A stretch of 7,267 nt of DNA from a virus, in IMG/VR virus record IMGVR_UViG_3300008222_000004. The stretch is one strand, 5' to 3'. The notes under the pieces were generated by a model. It had not been told where the DNA came from. It saw only the letters and a program-made list of their open reading frames with translations, and did not search any database. Each line of letters starts with the position of its first letter. Position 1 is the stretch's first letter. Made by a program: the position numbers and the translations under genes. Positions 83-7,267 of this stretch are shown in pieces.

Positions 83-244
83 AATAAATCCATCCCAGTA
101 ACAGGCATTCCCTCATAATCTTAACAAAAAGCACAGCTTGGCAAGGAAGAAGTTCAACGGCTGCGCCTCGCAACAGATAAAAATTATCATATGTAACACG
201 TAATCACTAACTATTAACCATCGATCACTTGATATCAAATAGCA

Positions 245-460
245 TTACCTGGTTAACAATTCTGATATCAAAGTTTCCGCCATTTGCTTTCGTTCGTAGG
301 CATCAGTGATATCATTTAATTTTTTATCAGATTCAATTAAACGCTCAGCATTTTCAATCAACCAAATAATAGCCTTACTTTTAGTTGCGTGACCAGAGGA
401 AGCTAAAAAGGAATTTAATGTAGCGTCTTGCTTTTCATCAAGTCTAAGAGGAAAGGCCAT
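245..460 (-). CDS. Ribbon-helix-helix (CopG/Arc/MetJ-like) DNA-binding protein, 71 aa, second gene of the cargo cassette
   Basis: MAFPLRLDEKQDATLNSFLASSGHATKSKAIIWLIENAERL fits a beta-strand/helix/helix RHH pattern. The preferred start is ATG 460 because a strong SD (GGGAGAG) lies about 6 nt upstream. That ATG also sits 1 nt after the TGA stop (464..462) of the upstream gene, which indicates translational coupling. The longer ORF starting at 508 has a hydrophobic, SD-less extension. Confidence 0.6.
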   Translation of the reverse strand: MAFPLRLDEKQDATLNSFLASSGHATKSKAIIWLIENAERLIESDKKLNDITDAYERKQMAETLISELLTR

Positions 461-461
461 A

Positions 462-656
462 TCAAACTCTCCCATCAAAAGAATAATGAGTAATAGCATG
501 TGACTCAAAAAAACCTAAAGTCTCCAATACTCGAACATAAGTACAACTAGGTGAAATAAAATCAACTGTGTACCATTTATCAGAACCAACAATTTTAATT
601 TTAGTTACTTTAACTTTTATATCTTCTGGTAATTTAATTTCAGAATGCTTAAACAT
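462..656 (-). CDS. Hypothetical 64-aa protein, first gene of the cargo cassette, beta-rich, no TM segment or signal peptide, family not recognised
   Basis: The ORF is in frame with the 462..686 track entry. The preferred start is ATG 656 (MFKHSEIKL...), preceded by SD AAGGGG with a 7-nt spacer. The ATG at 686 would lie just downstream of the predicted extended -10 at 689..697, at about the predicted transcription start, leaving no room for a ribosome-binding site. Confidence 0.5.
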   Translation of the reverse strand: MFKHSEIKLPEDIKVKVTKIKIVGSDKWYTVDFISPSCTYVRVLETLGFFESHAITHYSFDGRV

Positions 657-688
657 TTGATAACCCCTTTTGATTTGTTTATGCATCT

Positions 689-717
689 ATTATAGCAAAA
701 TAAAGGATTAATGATAC
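689..717 (-). promoter_or_regulatory. Extended -10 promoter for the two-gene cassette (TGcTATAAT)
   Basis: The minus strand reads ...GTATCA-17nt-(TGC)TATAAT. TATAAT is at 694..689 and the TG is at 697..696. The -35 position is occupied by GGTATCA, a heptamer that recurs at 744..750 and 773..779 (plus strand TGATACC). Confidence 0.5.
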
Positions 718-788
718 CATTTTGTGTGTTTAATTTGTTATTTTGATACCTTTTAACGCCCTAAAAATATACTGATACCCGTTCAACA

Positions 789-833
789 AATCAAAATAGC
801 AATTTGACCAATCAAAATAGCAATTTGATTGGT
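789..833. repeat. 19-bp direct repeat (aatcaaaatagcaatttga, 789..807 and 810..828, period 21) overlapping a perfect 10-bp-stem palindrome (accaatcaaa / tttgattggt, 807..816 and 824..833)
   Basis: Read directly from the sequence. It lies in the intergenic region between the zot stop and the cassette promoter. Confidence 0.85.
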
Positions 834-877
834 CGTGATTGATATCATAAACGACTTACCGGTTCGCCATTTTGATA

Positions 878-2251
878 TCAAAAAGTAGAAGGTCTTGAGG
901 CCAATAAAGAGCTATCATCATCGCCAGAATCAGGGTCTTGATAATCATCTTTGTCATAACAAACAACAACACGAGAAACATCACTATAAGTCACACGGTA
1001 AACACACTCTGAAAGTGTTTCAAAATCATAACCCATTTTTATAAGCGCCGTATTATCAGTGCTAAACATAAAATTATCACCTTCATAAACATCTATAAAA
1101 ACAATATTAAAAGACGAACTTGAAACATAAGTTAACGTATTTGAAAGTCTAGAATAAGCTTTCTGAACCATATAACCAGTAGAATAAAACGTATAATCAG
1201 CTAAAGGCTCAGAATGAGAAACTTTAAAACCAACCGCACTACTATTATCATCATCAGCAACAAAACTACCCGCTTTGTGTACTTCCACAGAGTCTGTTTT
1301 AACGGCCTCAATTGTTTTCTGAGTTTCTGAAATAACGACAGCTTCATCATCAGCGAAGAAACCCGAGACATAATAAATCCAAAAAGCCAAAATGGATAAT
1401 AAAAGAACCAAAGCAAACTTAAAACCGTTTGACTCAATCGGACTAGCAGCCGCCCCACTTTTGTTGTTTTTACCCGTTTGAGTTGATTTATACAATTTAA
1501 ATACATCGAGTGGAATCTTCCTTCTTTTAATTATATCGCCCTTCTTTGCCGTTAAACCTTTCTCTTGAGCATTGTGCTCAAAAGTACGTGGTCTACGTTG
1601 AAAATAAGGCAAAGGGAAACTATCAAGAGATTTATGTTGAACGGCAGTTTCAGCAACTGACCGAATCAACGAATGGACTTTGGTTATATCTGGAGTACAG
1701 AGTAAAACGTCCCAGTTAAATTTGCGGTGACGCATCAACGCATCTTTAATATTGCGTGGATAACGAATATGACCATTCGAATCACGCTCAGAAAGTGCTA
1801 AATCATCGGTGTAACCATCATCAGCAATACATGTAAGGCACGACATAGAATAATCACGTAACTCAACAGGCAGAGAGTCAACAGCAGACATAACAGAATC
1901 AGTAGAAGCACTACTGTCTAAAGCAACGTCATGTATTTTTAATTCATTTCTGTCTTTATCTGAATAAACATTTTGAACTTCATCAATCAACAACAACGCG
2001 CCAACTGGTAACCAGTGAAACCAGTTAGCAATAATATTATGACCAACATCATTAAGCGTTGAAAAACGCCAAAGCTGAGCCGAATCAGGAAACTTTTCAC
2101 CCAAAACTTTTTCAATAGATTCTAAATCTAAAATACCCTCAACATTTGTAATAACACAGCGGCCTTTACGTAAGGCCGGAAGTAAATCGAACCAAACGGC
2201 AGACGAGGACTTATAAGAACCGGGGTTCCCGTGATAAATTTTTGAAGCCAT
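878..2251 (-). CDS. zot: Zot / pI-family phage assembly ATPase (zonular occludens toxin-like), 457 aa
   Basis: The N-terminus MASKIYHGNPGSYKSSSAVW...ITNVEG closely resembles the CTXphi Zot N-terminus as I recall it (HHGAPGSYKTSGALW...ITNVRG). A deviant Walker A GNPGSYKS is at 2207..2230 and a Walker B LLLIDE at aa 86-91. A single central TM (FKFALVLLLSILAFWIYYVSGFF, about aa 277-299) is followed by a roughly 155-aa C-terminal domain with an acidic tail. The ATG abuts the stop of the upstream gene. Confidence 0.9.
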   Translation of the reverse strand: MASKIYHGNPGSYKSSSAVWFDLLPALRKGRCVITNVEGILDLESIEKVLGEKFPDSAQLWRFSTLNDVGHNIIANWFHWLPVGALLLIDEVQNVYSDKDRNELKIHDVALDSSASTDSVMSAVDSLPVELRDYSMSCLTCIADDGYTDDLALSERDSNGHIRYPRNIKDALMRHRKFNWDVLLCTPDITKVHSLIRSVAETAVQHKSLDSFPLPYFQRRPRTFEHNAQEKGLTAKKGDIIKRRKIPLDVFKLYKSTQTGKNNKSGAAASPIESNGFKFALVLLLSILAFWIYYVSGFFADDEAVVISETQKTIEAVKTDSVEVHKAGSFVADDDNSSAVGFKVSHSEPLADYTFYSTGYMVQKAYSRLSNTLTYVSSSSFNIVFIDVYEGDNFMFSTDNTALIKMGYDFETLSECVYRVTYSDVSRVVVCYDKDDYQDPDSGDDDSSLLASRPSTF

Positions 2252-2659
2252 CTATAACACCGCCAACACAAATCGAGCAAGATAAGCTTCAACAATTAAA
2301 TTAAAAGCCTGAAAGATCTTTAATTCAACAGCAGCATTTCTAATGTCAGCAGGAAGATTACCAGCAAACTTTTCAACAAGCTGAATAAAGCCAACATCAG
2401 CAAGAATAAGCTTGGCAACACTAAAAGCAGACTCGACAGAATAAATCAAAATCGTCACTTTCATGAAAATAATAAACTCGACAAGATAAGCGAATAAACG
2501 ATCAATAAAATCAGGTATATCGACAGAAAAGAAATCGATAGCAATCGTAAAAAACGAATCTATTTGTGAAAAAATCGAGCCAAAAGTCCAATCATCACCA
2601 GCCGCAAACGCAGAAAATGACGAGAACATAAACATACATAAAATTAATTTTTTGAACAT
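2252..2659 (-). CDS. pVI/Ace-like hydrophobic minor coat protein candidate, 135 aa
   Basis: Very hydrophobic protein with several TM-like segments. It sits between the pIII-like gene and zot, as in Ff (gVI) and CTXphi (ace). It overlaps the upstream gene by 16 nt and abuts zot. No sequence motif was recognised. Confidence 0.55.
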   Translation of the reverse strand: MFKKLILCMFMFSSFSAFAAGDDWTFGSIFSQIDSFFTIAIDFFSVDIPDFIDRLFAYLVEFIIFMKVTILIYSVESAFSVAKLILADVGFIQLVEKFAGNLPADIRNAAVELKIFQAFNLIVEAYLARFVLAVL

Positions 2660-4149
2660 ACAATTACCACCGCACTCATAGATGCTATCATCATTATTAC
2701 AAGGCCAATCTGACCGTAATACTTAGACCAAGAATCCAACGGACTTGCAACAGTAGTTGTATGACCGCCTTTTGATATCGAAAATCCTAAATCACTGCCA
2801 CCGCCAGAAGAGGTAACATCTACTGTGAAAGATTCCTTTAAATCCTTATAACCGTTTTCTATTGTCGAAGTTAAAAGCGCTTTCTTATCTTCAACTTTTG
2901 TTTTAAATAAAGATAAATCAGAATCACTAAGGGAAATCCTTCCCGAAGGAAGATCAATACCACTAGTCTTGGTTAAGGAAATTTTATCGCTTAATTTATC
3001 AATACCTTCAACAACTTTATCAAGTCCATCTTTTGTCGTAGTATTTAATTTATCAAGTCCATCTTTTGTCGTAGTATTTAATTTATTAAGACCATCTTTA
3101 GTCGAATTATTTAATTTATTAAGACCATCTTTAGTCGAATTATTTAATTTATTAAGACCATCTTCAGTCGTACTTTTTAAATTACTAAAACCAGAAGAAT
3201 TCGTATTTTTTAAATCAACAAGACCATCTTTTGTCGTTGCTTCTAATTTATTAAAATTTGAATTTAATGATTCAAAGCCCAAAATATTCGTTGAATCTAA
3301 ACGCGATAATTTATTAATGATATCCGCATAATCTTGTGATTTATCACCATCGGTACCGCCATCGCCATCAGTACCGCCATCGCCATCAGTACCGCCATCG
3401 CCATCAGTACCGCCATCATTATCAATAAAGCATTTCGTCTTAACTTTATGTGTAGATTCACTGCAAGATATGATCTTAAATGTAAAATTTCTACCGCCAG
3501 CTCTCAAAGCACAATGAGCACGAGCAGAATTTACTTTTTGTCTAGCTTCAGGACCAGCACAATAAGCCCCCTCATCTGGTTTGGTATCACTGTCACCACA
3601 ATTAAACCAACAATCTTCACCAGTTTGACTACCATCAGAACCGCCATCAGTACCGCCATCAGAACCGCCATCAGTACCGCCATCAGTACCGCCATCAGTA
3701 CCGCCATCACCTTTATCAACACAATCAGTAGTTAAGGTTTTTTTTTGCTCATCACAATGGGGCGTAAAAACACTAGTAGAAGGACATTTATTTCGCTCTT
3801 TTTTTATTTCGTTTTTCACGTTATCACTACTACAAAAAAGCTCTTCTGGTTTTTCACAAACCCCCATATCATTAACTTCTTCACCAAAAGGGCAACTACT
3901 GGTATCTTCTGGTTTCACAGTAAATACAGTATTAAACCTATTTTGATACTTAACTGAATCCCCTTTAATAAAATACGATTCACCAGTTGCAGCCCTCATC
4001 TGATATACCCAAGTCTGCATATCAACAGTTGAGCCAACACCTATACCGCCAGAATCCCCGTAATTACCAACATATATAACCTCCCTCAATAAAGCAGAAG
4101 CAGAAAAGGAAAATAAGATTAACATTGAAAATAAAATATTTTTAAACAT
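2644..4149 (-). CDS. pIII-like adsorption / minor coat protein, 501 aa
   Basis: Signal peptide MFKNILFSMLILFSFSASA|LL. Two 6-Cys modules are each followed by a Gly/Asp linker: (GGTD)n at aa 147-173 and (DGGTDG)4 at aa 245-269. An 11-aa repeat array covers about aa 300-377. A C-terminal membrane anchor is IGLVIMMIASMSAVVIVCSKN. SD AGGA lies 5 nt before the ATG. The gene is downstream of the major coat gene, as in Ff gIII and CTXphi orfU. Confidence 0.8.
   Translation of the reverse strand: MFKNILFSMLILFSFSASALLREVIYVGNYGDSGGIGVGSTVDMQTWVYQMRAATGESYFIKGDSVKYQNRFNTVFTVKPEDTSSCPFGEEVNDMGVCEKPEELFCSSDNVKNEIKKERNKCPSTSVFTPHCDEQKKTLTTDCVDKGDGGTDGGTDGGTDGGSDGGTDGGSDGSQTGEDCWFNCGDSDTKPDEGAYCAGPEARQKVNSARAHCALRAGGRNFTFKIISCSESTHKVKTKCFIDNDGGTDGDGGTDGDGGTDGDGGTDGDKSQDYADIINKLSRLDSTNILGFESLNSNFNKLEATTKDGLVDLKNTNSSGFSNLKSTTEDGLNKLNNSTKDGLNKLNNSTKDGLNKLNTTTKDGLDKLNTTTKDGLDKVVEGIDKLSDKISLTKTSGIDLPSGRISLSDSDLSLFKTKVEDKKALLTSTIENGYKDLKESFTVDVTSSGGGSDLGFSISKGGHTTTVASPLDSWSKYYGQIGLVIMMIASMSAVVIVCSKN
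3021..3251. repeat. 33-bp tandem repeat array, about 7 units, inside the pIII-like CDS
   Basis: Units 3021..3053 and 3054..3086 are identical, as are 3087..3119 and 3120..3152. Units starting at 3153, 3186 and 3219 are diverged. They encode 11-aa repeats of the form (N/D)KLN(N/T)(S/T)TKDGL. Confidence 0.95.
3343..3417. repeat. 18-bp tandem repeat (atcgccatcagtaccgcc, about 4 units) encoding the (DGGTDG)4 linker
   Basis: Read directly from the sequence, within the pIII-like CDS. Confidence 0.95.
3631..3711. repeat. 12-bp tandem repeat (gccatcagtacc / gccatcagaacc, about 6 units) encoding the (GGTD/GGSD)n linker
   Basis: Read directly from the sequence. It shares the string ccatcagtaccgccatc with the 3343..3417 array, in the same reading frame. 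Confidence 0.95.
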
Positions 4150-4285: not shown

Positions 4286-4495
4286 TTACTTCATCCATTT
4301 CAACAATGCACCAACACCGAAACCGATAACAGCCAGCGCAATAACAGCAGTAATTACGGCAGCTTGGTTAGTATTAGCTTCACCACCCGCAGCTGTAATC
4401 TGACTAGTATAATCGGCAGCGTTAGCAGCAACAGAAGCACCCGCAAGAGTTAAAGCAAGACCAGTTTTTTTAGCAAGAGTTTTCATTTTAGACAT
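4286..4495 (-). CDS. pVIII-like major coat protein precursor
   Basis: Signal peptide ending in AxA (SVAANA|ADY). The roughly 44-aa mature protein has an acidic N-terminus (D, E), a hydrophobic core AVITAVIALAVIGFGVGALL and a basic C-terminus KWMK. The preferred start is ATG 4495 (MSKMKT), which has a weak GGAA SD 6 nt upstream. The ATG at 4507 (MEIVMSK) has no SD but cannot be excluded. Confidence 0.85.
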   Translation of the reverse strand: MSKMKTLAKKTGLALTLAGASVAANAADYTSQITAAGGEANTNQAAVITAVIALAVIGFGVGALLKWMK

Positions 4496-4529
4496 AACAA
4501 TTTCCATATAAAAATAATAAAAATAGGGA

Positions 4530-4769
4530 TTATTTCCCTAACCAACGAACAACGCGACCAGCACCGTGAGCAACTACAAAAGAAGTCATACAAGTACCAA
4601 TAGCGATTGAAAATATCGCCATATCAAAAGCGAATATTTCATTTAAAACAGTAGTTAAATTGTTATTAACTAATGCCTCATAATCTGCTTTACCAACAAG
4701 CACTAAGGAATTAGACGAACATGTAACAGCTTTTACAAAATTCTCACTTGTTAGCTCTGCACAAATCAT
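4530..4769 (-). CDS. Small membrane protein, 79 aa, candidate minor coat protein in the pVII/pIX position
   Basis: C-terminal TM segment (AIFSIAIGTCMTSFVVAHGAG) followed by a basic tail RVVRWLGK, which is coat-protein-like. Its ATG 4769 directly abuts the TAA stop (4772..4770) of the upstream gene. It sits between the ssDNA-binding candidate and the major coat gene. Confidence 0.45.
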   Translation of the reverse strand: MICAELTSENFVKAVTCSSNSLVLVGKADYEALVNNNLTTVLNEIFAFDMAIFSIAIGTCMTSFVVAHGAGRVVRWLGK

Positions 4770-5072
4770 TTAAGCAACTTTTGCAGGATGGAAACCAACA
4801 ACTTTGATAACCATCTCACCCTTTTTTACAGTAGTTTCTAGATCAACAAGACAAGTACCAGGTACTTGACCGGATAAGGCTAAAGTTCTACAAAGCTGAT
4901 TGTCATTATCTGTAGAAACCTTAACCTTTGCGTGTTTTTGACCTACATCTATTCTTTCAGGTGTAATTTGTGAATTTTGTTCACTATCTAAAATGATTAC
5001 ACTTGCGTATAGATCACCACCATTATCTAATTTACCCGCTGAAATAGATAAAATCTGCATAGGTACTTTCAT
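4770..5072 (-). CDS. Candidate ssDNA-binding protein (pV/RstB analogue), 100 aa
   Basis: First gene of the structural operon, with size and beta-rich composition compatible with an OB fold. Good SD GAGG (5077..5080) lies 4 nt before the ATG. The assignment rests on position, not on a recognised motif. Confidence 0.45.
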   Translation of the reverse strand: MKVPMQILSISAGKLDNGGDLYASVIILDSEQNSQITPERIDVGQKHAKVKVSTDNDNQLCRTLALSGQVPGTCLVDLETTVKKGEMVIKVVGFHPAKVA

Positions 5073-5088
5073 ATAGCCTCACTAACCT

Positions 5089-5148
5089 GTAACGAATATG
5101 GAACGAATTTGGAACGTATTTGGAACGTATTTGGAACGCTTGGACGGG
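5089..5148. promoter_or_regulatory. Array of about five 11-bp iterons, GGAACG(A/T)AT(A/T)T, probable operator
   Basis: Units are gtaacgaatat (5089), ggaacgaattt (5100), ggaacgtattt (5111), ggaacgtattt (5122), ggaacgctt (5133) and ggacggg (5142). The period is about one helical turn. The array lies between the predicted -10 of the structural-operon promoter and its RBS, and upstream of the divergent RHH gene. Confidence 0.7.
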
Positions 5149-5205: not shown

Positions 5206-5412
5206 TTGTCATATAGTGAAAATGAATATCAAGAAATGATAAAAAGAGATTTAGCTGAAATGTCAAAAATGATGTCAAGCAAAGGAGTAACAACGGTTAG
5301 AATTAAAAATGGAATATATGAAAAAGTAAAAGCAATCTGTGATAAAGAAAATTTAACAGTTGTCGATTATATTAACTCAGCAGTAGCAGAAAAAATCATA
5401 AGCGAAAAGTAG
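5206..5412 (+). CDS. Ribbon-helix-helix transcriptional regulator candidate, 68 aa, the only plus-strand gene
   Basis: The C-terminal half GVTTVRIKNGIYEKVKAICDKENLTVVDYINSAVAEKI fits a strand-helix-helix RHH pattern. It has a TTG start with SD AGAGG about 8 nt upstream. It is divergent from the structural operon and convergent with rep. Confidence 0.55.
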   Translation: MSYSENEYQEMIKRDLAEMSKMMSSKGVTTVRIKNGIYEKVKAICDKENLTVVDYINSAVAEKIISEK

Positions 5413-5455: not shown

Positions 5456-7102
5456 TTAAATATTTTCATCCTTCGCGACTAAAGGACGTTTAATTAAAGA
5501 GATCCTGTCATCTAAAAACAGACCTTTAAAAAAACCTCTTCTATGCTTTGAATTTGCAATTGAATAAATATCATCTGCAATAGATTCTAAATAACTAGTA
5601 TTATGATTAAATTCGAGTGGAAATTGATATTTCACAACCTTAGTTTTAACCCGTTCGTCAAAACAATCCTCTTCAAATTCATCATGAGATTTACCGCGAG
5701 CATTAAAACCAGATTCAAAAGTTAAAAAATCATCAGCAAACTTATCAAGGCCAAAAAGATAACGGGCAACTGCAACAGAACCGCCAGACTCAGCTAAATC
5801 TAATACTAAATTTCTATGTTTAAGTTTTAATATTTGTTTCCATTCAACAGGCAAAATATGACAAAGTAAATCTGCTTTATCTTCTTCCTGCGAAATGATT
5901 TCTTCATCAGTAGCTTGCTTACCTAACCCGAAATGATCACGCAATCCTTTCGACCAACGCAACATGTTTTTACCTTTAATTGCTCGCGCGTAAAATAAAA
6001 ATAAAAATTTAGCTTCTTTACGTTGTTCCGGTGTTAAATCAGAATCAACAGAGTCAGAAAGCAAAGCCCACGGAGTCTTAGAACCTTTTTTACCAAGTTT
6101 TGTCATACCCTTGGTCGCTTCGTCCATCATATCCCAAGTTATTTTTTTACCCGATTTAGTTTCTAATATTTGCTCATCACTACCAAACTTAGAAATATAT
6201 TCACCTGCCTTGTCACCATTCTGTATATCAAGACCATTCATATTAGGCATACCCAAACCAGCACTAATAGACACCGATTTCCAACGGTTTAAAATATGAC
6301 GCCAAGCATCTGATTGATCATTTAAAATATAACCCTTATCAGTACGGTTTGTTGAAGGTAATTTCTTATCAGAAACAATGATTAAGTGAAAATGAGGATG
6401 CCAACCATTTAAACCATGCAAAACTTCAAATGATCTTATATTACCGATGATCCCATATTTATTTTTAAAACGAGTTGCCCAAGCACCCGCCCAAAATTTA
6501 GTTAATGCACAAGATATTTTAGGTAATAAATCTTCTATTTTATCCGATGCAGTGTGAGGGGTTGTAAGTGTCAAAAGAGATAAATTATTACCAATGGCCT
6601 CAGCTTGGTTGGCCATCACGCGTAATTCATTTGATTTACGTTCATTAATTTTAGCGGCACAAATGGGACAAGTTGAAGCACTAGCACAAGAGCTAAGCCC
6701 TGAATAAAAAGATTTTTTATTAGTTGAAGATTTAACAATTGAAACAGTCGAAGAAATATTAATTCTAGTACACGAACAAGTTCGATGATAAACAGGATAA
6801 CCACCTTTATTTAGTGGCGTATGATCACCATGAAAAAGATAGAGCGCATCCCTTGCGGCATCCTGTAGTTTAAAACGAATTTTTCGTGCCTCCTTAGTAG
6901 CTTCAACACTTGAAAGCTTACCAAGAACAACAAATTCGCCCGTTGATTCATCTAAAAACTCAGATGATTTTTTAGGGGGGGTACGTAACTTTGCATATAT
7001 ACCGAGGGGCTCACCGCCCATTCTTTGCTCAGCCTTCGCCATCACAGGCGATGAGCCCCCACAAAAACTTGTATTTTTTAATAATACTTTGCTATTATTC
7101 AT
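5456..7102 (-). CDS. Rolling-circle replication initiator (HUH endonuclease, Rep_1 / pC194 / phage gene II-type), 548 aa
   Basis: Motif I is LLTLTTP (6557..6577). Motif II (HUH) is HPHFHLIIV (HPHFHL at 6383..6400). Motif III is GEYISKF with Tyr302 at 6197..6199. An upstream Cys cluster, HRTCSC...GLSSCASASTCPICAAKINER (6659..6778), is typical of gene II/X-family phage and plasmid Reps. The SD is weak, so the exact start is uncertain. Confidence 0.9.
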   Translation of the reverse strand: MNNSKVLLKNTSFCGGSSPVMAKAEQRMGGEPLGIYAKLRTPPKKSSEFLDESTGEFVVLGKLSSVEATKEARKIRFKLQDAARDALYLFHGDHTPLNKGGYPVYHRTCSCTRINISSTVSIVKSSTNKKSFYSGLSSCASASTCPICAAKINERKSNELRVMANQAEAIGNNLSLLTLTTPHTASDKIEDLLPKISCALTKFWAGAWATRFKNKYGIIGNIRSFEVLHGLNGWHPHFHLIIVSDKKLPSTNRTDKGYILNDQSDAWRHILNRWKSVSISAGLGMPNMNGLDIQNGDKAGEYISKFGSDEQILETKSGKKITWDMMDEATKGMTKLGKKGSKTPWALLSDSVDSDLTPEQRKEAKFLFLFYARAIKGKNMLRWSKGLRDHFGLGKQATDEEIISQEEDKADLLCHILPVEWKQILKLKHRNLVLDLAESGGSVAVARYLFGLDKFADDFLTFESGFNARGKSHDEFEEDCFDERVKTKVVKYQFPLEFNHNTSYLESIADDIYSIANSKHRRGFFKGLFLDDRISLIKRPLVAKDENI

Positions 7103-7144
7103 AATGAATTAAACCTAGAAGCCGTCGAAGCTGTGGTTAATTTA

Positions 7145-7267
7145 AAGTTTTAAAGCGCTATCGGATTGCTGTCTGATAGCGTTTTTTCGTTTTACTCATA
7201 CTACTTAGTAATCAATCATTTCGCAAAATAAATCCATCCCAGTAACAGGCATTCCCTCATAATCTTA
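7145..7267. repeat. Terminal redundancy, copy 2, identical to 1..123
   Basis: Same 123-bp string as the window start. It is not an independent element. Confidence 0.95.

Follow-up and report, generated by a model that had tools for sequence, protein, structure and literature searches.

The closest described counterparts of the system analyzed here are regulators of the ribbon-helix-helix (RHH) fold that read short, repeated DNA sites. MetJ of Escherichia coli, which needs S-adenosylmethionine (SAM) as a co-repressor, binds cooperatively, one dimer to each 8-bp metbox (AGACGTCT), with an N-terminal strand setting the specificity. Arc and Mnt of P22, CopG of pMV158 and omega of pSM19035 have either a single compact operator, of 13-21 bp, or contiguous heptads. 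Here, we report an analysis of a virus genome, IMG/VR record IMGVR_UViG_3300008222_000004, represented by a stretch of 7,267 nucleotides (hereafter, the window), in which an 8-bp palindrome, TGATATCA (hereafter, the box), recurs around the gene for a 71-amino-acid RHH-like protein that we denote RHH71. From comparison of sequences, we propose that the boxes are probably the recognition sites, that is, the operator set, of RHH71. Together, the protein and its boxes appear to form a previously undescribed module that is conserved in filamentous phages.

The proposed binding would resemble that of MetJ in the 8-bp palindromic box, the presence of several boxes and the specificity conferred by the strand, but metboxes abut in tandem, whereas the boxes described here are separated by 32-33 bp and have a conserved CC(W)GG in the middle; no sequence relationship between the two proteins was detected. 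With Arc/Mnt, CopG and omega, RHH71 has in common the small size (about 45-75 amino acids), the encoding by a mobile element, and the short repeated or pseudo-symmetric sites over its own promoter. It differs from these proteins in falling below the Pfam thresholds for RHH families and in a C-terminal helical extension of about 30 residues, and we know of none among them in which phased arrays mark the 3' end of the regulator gene or of the operon upstream. In MatP, which acts on the Ter macrodomain of E. coli, an RHH domain combined with a coiled coil bridges dimers bound at separate palindromic matS sites of 13 bp. MatP offers a possible model for the coupling of boxes 33 bp apart or of arrays about 500 bp apart, but it is a chromosomal organizer, not a transcription factor, and its sequence match to RHH71 is at chance level (E = 0.6). 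Auxiliary operators located hundreds of base pairs away, some of them intragenic, boost repression via looping in the lac (O2), gal (OI) and deo systems, where the proteins belong to other families and the sites are single, in contrast to the phased pairs with a conserved spacer motif described here. Finally, FpsR of the Shewanella filamentous phage SW1 controls the genetic switch of that phage and binds four operators, of which one lies within a promoter -35 element (PMC8569181, citing Jian et al. 2019). These operators are located in the replication-proximal fpsR-fpsA intergenic region, which corresponds, by position alone, to the place of a second RHH-like protein of the window, Arc68, rather than to that of RHH71, and no arrays at 3' ends are described.

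The window contains five exact copies of the box, against 0.17 expected, and none of 200 dinucleotide shuffles reached five. A sequence-only reading of this DNA, which holds with one correction, had correctly located four copies (230-237, 263-270, 840-847 and 873-880), forming two pairs with identical 33-bp start-to-start spacing, but its count of four missed a fifth, at 307-314, within the RHH71 gene and 44 bp from the copy at 263. All five lie between the stop codon of zot and the 3' end of the RHH71 gene. When one mismatch was allowed, the window yielded 11 matches compared with 4.5 expected; the number of one-mismatch sites that fall outside 230-880, five, is that expected by chance, so the cluster does not extend beyond this region. 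Three box-like sites lie close to the promoter on the minus strand (712-778), namely, GGTATCA at 778-772 and at 750-744, and TGGTATCA at 719-712, which reads TGATACCA on the plus strand (712-719). The set therefore comprises at least eight sites and not two isolated pairs.

Along the gene strand, the first array begins at the end of zot with box B (873-880), inside which zot terminates (stop codon 878-880, minus strand) and which is part of the 14-bp palindrome TTTTGATATCAAAA at 870-883, continues through a 25-bp spacer (848-872) with a central CCGG at 859-862, and ends with box C (840-847). Next, between the array and the promoter, comes a separate repeat family, ATCAAA-N7-TTTGAT, in two copies (790-807 and 812-829, together spanning 790-829); these repeats reuse the flank plus half-site of the box (TTTGAT/ATCAAA) in everted orientation. 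The promoter of the cassette operon has an extended -10 element, TGCTATAAT, read from the sequence at 689-697 (minus strand), which is missing from the list produced by a simple promoter scan because that scan requires a -35 match. The operon consists of orf64, a variable first gene of 64 codons (462-656, minus), and the RHH71 gene (245-460, minus; stop codon 245-247), inside which lie box D (307-314, codons N-D-I-T) and box E (263-270, codons L-I-S). Box E opens the second array, in which a 25-bp spacer (238-262) with a central CCTGG at 248-252 (CCAGG on the gene strand), within the codons T-R-stop, leads to box F (230-237), 8 nt beyond the RHH71 stop codon. The observation that the two 41-bp blocks, 840-880 overlapping the zot stop codon and 230-270 spanning the final RHH71 codons and the stop codon, align without gaps also holds: they form a 44-nt direct repeat (229-272 versus 839-882) of 73% identity, with a central ACC(T)GGT in common.

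Relatives were gathered via RHH71, Rep, zot and a profile of the RHH71 family, and eight lineages with an RHH71 homologue were compared. These are the window itself (RHH71 identity 100%), whose own contig in a JGI metagenome is L008 (Ga0209292_1012160); L005 (79%), in which an apparent secretin gene, and not zot, precedes the cassette; L003/L004 (79%), with a 228-amino-acid gene in place of orf64; L022/L023 (69%), without orf64 and with a different type of zot; L029-L031 (63%); the cultured Shewanella phage Dolos (OP867012; 38%); L166 (MH649005; 35%), with a G2P-type Rep; and L163, a Shewanella xiamenensis contig (34%) with a Rep_trans protein. Clustered 8-bp boxes of the form TGNTANCA are present in all eight, at equivalent places, with 4-9 copies per genome or contig compared with about one expected. 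Boxes are absent from L001, L002, L009 and L013, which have a related zot and no RHH71; from L024/L025, with a 79% identical Rep and the intergenic region of the window; from L026-L028 (Rep 74%); and from the more distant Rep relatives L158-L162, which have other cassettes and repeats. Conversely, boxes accompany unrelated replication proteins, namely, Rep_trans in L163, G2P in L166 and the Rep of Dolos, which gave no match to the Rep of the window in the search of the loci. The RHH71 module is seen in filamentous phages with three families of replication proteins, the named hosts being Shewanella (Dolos and L163). The suggestion that the repeats are duplicated origin elements is refuted by this distribution, given that boxes are missing next to Rep proteins 74-79% identical to that of the window and occur with unrelated Rep families.

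The boxes form two recurrent arrangements: arrays over the promoter, with 32-bp spacing and spacers free of CC(W)GG, and what we call type-33 arrays, with 33-bp spacing. In the promoter arrays of Dolos, L163 and L166, the -35 element (TTGACT) falls within the spacer, and the -10 element is overlapped by the following box. In a second group, consisting of the window, L005, L022 and L029, the -35 position of the cassette promoter is taken by a box whose end lies 17 nt upstream of TGnTATAAT; the -10 element of the window is identical in L005 and L029, and reads TGTTATAAT in L022. Thus, in seven lineages, the sites overlap the promoter of the RHH gene itself, as expected of an RHH operator. The ATCAAA-N7-TTTGAT repeats are kept in L005, L022 and L029, and L003 has instead three to five repeats containing TGTGACAG.

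A type-33 array consists of a box, a 25-bp spacer with CCGG or CC(A/T)GG at offset 10-11, and a second box, and is located just past a stop codon. This geometry is identical in 13 array intervals from six lineages when only pairs of strict boxes are counted, and is also present in L166 with relaxed boxes; the two 41-bp blocks of the window are therefore two type-33 arrays. Such an array follows the RHH gene in seven of the eight lineages, the second box being decayed in L005; the orthologues of box F read TGGTATCA in L003, TGCTATCA in L022 and TGATGGCA in L029. The window clade has a second type-33 array after zot or the secretin gene, where the orthologue of box B lies on or just past the stop codon of the upstream gene in L003, L005, L022 and L029, and AACCGG in the spacer is invariant in five lineages. 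In the 1080-bp contig of L005, positions 2-241, the array, orf64 and RHH gene follow what appears, judged by eye, to be the 3' end of a secretin (pIV/GspD-like) gene, with the stop codon of the upstream gene again inside the first box. In the Dolos record, the 3' array occupies positions 6728-6801 and the promoter array 7437-7540. At its 3' end, Dolos has a three-box array, box-CCTGG-box-CCGG-box, beginning within the RHH stop codon, and the same three-box order is found after the upstream gene in L003, L005 and L022; one 33-bp unit of box plus spacer is present in these three lineages and missing from the window and L029.

The way in which the boxes change also points to a dedicated reader. 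The window, L003, L005 and Dolos have boxes of one type, TGATATCA/TGGTATCA (A/G-type), and L022, L029, L163 and L166 have boxes of another, TGCTATCA/TGATAGCA (C-type), and within one genome, every copy follows the local type, including the copies inside coding sequence. Thus, box D has become TGCTATCA in L022 and L029, with replacement of GAT (Asp) by GCT (Ala), and box E has become TGCTATCA in L022, through ATA (Ile) to CTA (Leu), and TGATAGCA, the same box in the opposite orientation, in L029, through TCA (Ser) to GCA (Ala). This concerted change indicates that the DNA element itself is under selection and implies a single trans-acting reader with lineage-specific specificity. Residues 3-4 of RHH71, in the predicted strand, vary accordingly: each of the four C-type lineages has IT or LT there, and each of the four A/G-type lineages has FP, FL or MV. 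Because the Dolos protein otherwise groups with the C-type L163 and L166, the switch in box type probably happened twice. The interpretation of the boxes as operators for a dimeric RHH protein, one of those offered by the sequence-only reading, is accordingly the one that gained support, given boxes found only in phages with RHH71, located on the promoter and at the 3' end of its gene, and co-varying with its strand.

By the same token, the description of region 230-880 as a cargo cassette bracketed by repeats proved misleading, as the RHH gene encodes the likely reader of the boxes and is not their cargo; only the gene that separates the promoter from the RHH gene is variable cargo. At this position, the window, L005 and L029 encode a 64-amino-acid protein and L003 a 228-amino-acid one; the gene is absent in L022 and replaced by apparently unrelated ORFs of 79 codons in L163 and 109 codons in Dolos. 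Family scans gave no match for the products of orf64 or of the 228-amino-acid gene, and orf64 cannot be the box reader because it is missing from L003, L022, L163, L166 and Dolos. A distant orf64 homologue (36% identity over 47 amino acids) was detected at 3108-3299 of L002, between the ssb-like and g7-like genes, so this small gene moves between positions. A type II toxin-antitoxin module was also considered and rejected: there is no conserved partner toxin, the neighbor being a protein of 64, 228, 79 or 109 amino acids or absent.

Moderate evidence, drawn from a predicted structure, indicates that RHH71 adopts an RHH-like fold. The AlphaFold2 (AF2) model (pLDDT 76) shows the N-terminal strand and two helices of this fold, with residues 1-8 extended and helices at 9-22 and 27-70. 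Foldseek matches in the PDB include the RHH proteins NikR, ParD, MazE9, AtaR and PutA, and RHH proteins make up most of the high-ranking matches whose entries are named; TCP-domain entries and unnamed transcription-factor/DNA entries rank best. Probability reaches 0.98, and the template modeling (TM) score is about 0.5 for an aligned length of about 44 residues. The RHH71 family is small, with 33 representatives among 1.84 billion proteins, and its consensus, MAITLRLTEEQE..L..M..tG..TKSKAI.WLIEN, shows the RHH pattern. The 33 members have only sub-threshold matches, to ParD, RHH_1, TacA1, VapB and DUF6290, and some sources label family members as CopG family, NikA or DUF1778. The Dolos paper credits Orf9 (WAX22041.1), the RHH71 homologue of that phage, with only 'some homologies' to a Maz-like antitoxin.

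If RHH71 is the reader, one dimer would bind each 8-bp quasi-palindromic box in the manner of MetJ on a metbox. Promoter boxes about 32 bp apart, over the -35 and -10 elements, would provide for autoregulation of the RHH operon, and the type-33 arrays at the 3' ends of operons could serve as distal operators that loop to the promoter, as roadblocks, or as both. Dimers three helical turns apart would sit on one face of the DNA and might be coupled through the long C-terminal helix, whose roughly 44 helical residues could span about half of the 112 angstroms between boxes. Both end arrays and the promoter boxes would then form a single repression complex, insulating the small regulatory operon by blocking both read-through that comes from the structural operon (zot) and read-through toward the replication region.

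Several observations weigh against the assignment of the boxes to RHH71. With respect to the protein, the Foldseek E-values are weak (0.09 or higher), because RHH71 is small; the sequence is not above any Pfam or NCBIfam RHH threshold; and a sequence search of the PDB with RHH71 returned nothing significant, only chance-level matches. With respect to the promoter, L003 is an exception, with TGTGACAG repeats and no overlapping box, and the promoter sites of the window are weaker variants (7-mers). The conserved CC(W)GG center of the type-33 spacer is not explained by dimers binding to boxes alone, and small RHH dimers separated by 33 bp could not reach each other unless the postulated helix contact exists. 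The co-variation of box and strand depends on about two evolutionary events. Finally, the perfect inverted symmetry of the zot-end pair, with its compensated changes, is also expected from a hairpin function.

A variant of the RHH71 reading, which we hold tentatively and consider somewhat unlikely, would treat the type-33 arrays as an architectural element in which RHH71 dimers, bridged in a MatP-like fashion by their long C-terminal helices and perhaps joined by a factor that reads CC(W)GG, form a protein-dependent boundary at the ends of operons. If true, this would provide a roadblock terminator or insulator in a genome with almost no intrinsic terminators and a conserved junction for the exchange of structural, regulatory and replication modules among inoviruses.

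The exchange of modules is also the substance of the first rival explanation, under which the blocks would be recombination sites, and a host or other recombinase, or homology between boxes, would move the cassette between inovirus backbones. Accessory genes located between repeated dyad-symmetric sites are familiar from pdif modules, integron attC sites and CTX-type attP, and the variable gene content between repeated sites is the point of likeness. Support for the blocks being a pair of recombination sites is weak and indirect. Breakpoints fall at boxes: homology between the window and L029 starts exactly at 880, in the box over the zot stop codon, and that between the window and L005 spans 883-225, from the first box to the last, with L005 flanks that differ on both sides (the secretin gene upstream, an L002-like element downstream). 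The insertion or deletion of one 33-bp unit is what unequal exchange between boxes would give, and the first gene of the cassette operon varies. However, these breakpoints are gene ends, where selection alone would put mosaic junctions, and the variable gene is not itself flanked by boxes. Homology with L022 and L029 does not stop on the right but extends across Rep and ssb, and a right-hand boundary is thus not a general feature. The arrays of Dolos, L163 and L166, one at the promoter and one at the 3' end, bracket nothing. No recombinase was found among the scanned ORFs of the window; the dif consensus had no match with up to three mismatches, and the XerD arm had 7 matches compared with 10.9 expected; and a 25-bp spacer is ill-suited to the core sites of tyrosine recombinases. 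An empty site was sought in L001, L002, L009 and L013, which have neither the cassette nor a box after zot, a weak test given that their zot is only about 55% identical, and no close relatives without the cassette were found in scans of genomes and metagenomes. Unlike pdif, attC and attP, the locus has no Xer-type 11-6-11 site, integrase or empty site, and its sites co-vary with the DNA-binding protein that they enclose. Altogether, we regard recombination as an unlikely function of the blocks.

Alternatively, the 8-mers could be the stems of single-stranded DNA (ssDNA) or RNA hairpins that act as a packaging signal, a minus-strand origin or a terminator. In Ff phages, the packaging signal lies just after the last morphogenesis gene, and the zot-end pair has this very location. 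Boxes C and B form an inverted pair throughout the window clade (five of five lineages), with two positions changed on both sides (A:T to C:G and T:A to C:G); the zot-end cells are 88% paired, compared with 32-62% in slid controls, and the pairs fold better than shuffles as ssDNA (z from -2.7 to -6.6). The RHH-end pair, in contrast, folds only in the window, being a direct pair, TGCTATCA...TGCTATCA, in L022 and failing to fold in L003 and L029 (z from -0.2 to -1.0), and the 3' arrays of L163 and L166 are direct repeats, so pairing is not a common property of the arrays. Furthermore, no T-run follows the stem, the terminator scan was empty at both blocks, and boxes occur also singly, over promoters and inside coding sequence; two-sided changes such as those of the zot-end pair would arise in the same way at a symmetric site for a dimeric protein. 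A hairpin at positions 8-41 of the window would fit an origin or packaging signal better than the boxes do, and its carriers L025-L028 have no boxes. We therefore judge hairpin formation improbable as the general function of the boxes, although the zot-end pair may have an additional role in ssDNA.

It is of comparably low probability that the boxes are bound by a protein other than RHH71, namely, Arc68, Rep or a host factor. Each phage examined has a second small RHH-like gene, which in the window is that of Arc68 (68 amino acids; 5206-5412, plus strand; PHROG 'Arc-like repressor'); the box resembles an extended -10 element (TGnTATcAT); and TTGATA in the box resembles CTTG/ATA, which we take to be the nick core of Rep_1/phiX-type origins. 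The strand of Arc68, TTVRIKNG, serves as a control: it is identical in the window, L022 and L029 despite their different boxes, and Arc68 co-varies instead with its own tandem CGTTCCAAAT repeats (5097-5139). A Rep_1 nick site, and with it Rep as the reader, is ruled out by the phylogenetic profile of the boxes, which are missing in L024-L028 and present in L163, L166 and Dolos. A host factor would not explain concerted change that is specific to each lineage and includes nonsynonymous replacements. Chance or a by-product of coding is scarcely credible: the genome is AT-rich, as is the palindrome, and two of the five copies lie in coding sequence, but the copy number exceeds that of every shuffle, the positions and 33-bp spacing are kept in eight lineages down to about 35% protein identity, and the coding copies change at the cost of amino acid replacements.

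Because bases 1-127 recur at 7141-7267, the window represents a complete, circular inovirus genome, 7140 bp in length. Its structural and replication genes are all on the minus strand: Rep (Pfam Rep_1; 5456-7102), an ssb-like gene (4770-5072), the major coat gene (4286-4507), a g3p-like gene (2644-4149), a g6p-like gene (2252-2659) and zot (878-2251). The g3p-like protein contains two runs of GGTDG/DGGTD repeats and four or five repeats of the TKDGLNKLN type, and its gene has tandem DNA repeats around 3000-3180, 3350-3420 and 3640-3710. About four tandem 11-bp CGTTCCAAAT repeats (gene strand) lie between Arc68 and the ssb-like gene and are kept in L022 and L029; L003 has other repeats near Arc68 and a different Arc68 strand. 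The hairpin at 8-41, with a 15-bp stem (AAAGCGCTATCGGA...TCTGATAGCGTTTT), precedes the Rep start by about 80 nt on the gene strand; L003 and L025 conserve it, L022 and L029 have it with changes, and L026-L028 have a different sequence at the same position. A non-coding stretch of 29 nt at 191-219 (gene strand GGTTAATAGTTAGTGATTACGTGTTACAT) is identical in L003, although the proteins of L003 and L022 are only 74-84% identical to those of the window; L022 keeps the GATTACGTGTTACAT half identical, and L025 lacks the stretch. Rfam and tRNA scans showed nothing relevant.

Whole-genome megablast gave no match among GenBank phages, and tblastn with zot against the same phages found only relatives of about 30% identity. 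Scans of genomes and metagenomes by alignment of zot yielded, besides the window's own contig, only relatives with at most 57% identity. A query of IMG/VR with RHH71 found nothing; one RHH71 homologue, P0001, is 97% identical. A scan of IMG/VR with the 15-mer intergenic pattern GATTATGAGGGAATG gave more than 80 loci, nearly all of them chance matches, and the only real ones among the matches listed are L032, from the same phage as L022, and L088, a distant one.

Some of the relatives have features of their own. L024 and L025 (JGI 3300025851 and 3300025738; 2757-bp contigs) represent an apparently circular mini-replicon of about 2.6 kb from the same metagenome as the window, with a Rep 79% identical, two ORFs (78 and 77 amino acids), and the Rep-proximal intergenic region with its hairpin, and without structural genes or boxes; like pDolos of Dolos, it may be a satellite plasmid with rolling-circle replication. 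In L026-L028 (ENA SCHR19-1 metagenomes), which are small contigs, the 74% identical Rep_1 has as neighbors an Ogr/Delta regulator and a major capsid gene of P2 type (Phage_cap_P2), an odd combination of replication of the inovirus kind with P2/P4-type genes. L001 and L010 have, around 4700-4760, just downstream of zot, a perfect (AAAACT) microsatellite of about 10 units. A conserved non-coding element of about 100 nt, TTCATGTGAGC...GGAGCGATTCAAAACC, is present around 7530-7640 of L002, L011 and L012 and at 920-1030 of L005, in otherwise different backbones; in L005, it begins at the decayed last box.

RHH repressor-operator systems are already known, as are inovirus repressors with several operators, such as FpsR of SW1, and no concept is overturned here because RHH autorepressors with multiple operators are well known. 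What is new is the fixed grammar of two kinds of arrays, with 33-bp arrays and their spacer core at the 3' ends of operons, one of them over the last codons of the regulator, and the conservation of these arrays across inoviruses with three Rep families. A literature search for TGATATCA as an operator turned up only cloning sites and unrelated uses, and the Dolos paper makes no mention of box arrays, although Dolos holds a textbook copy. Inoviruses establish chronic, non-lytic infections, and how they keep gene expression at a level tolerable to the host is poorly understood. The predictions on binding, on the specificity switch and on looping or roadblocks can be tested directly, as Dolos is cultured in Shewanella oneidensis MR-1. 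If RHH71 reads the boxes as proposed, this module would exemplify how a cis-element inside a gene can force amino acid changes in the very protein that reads that element.

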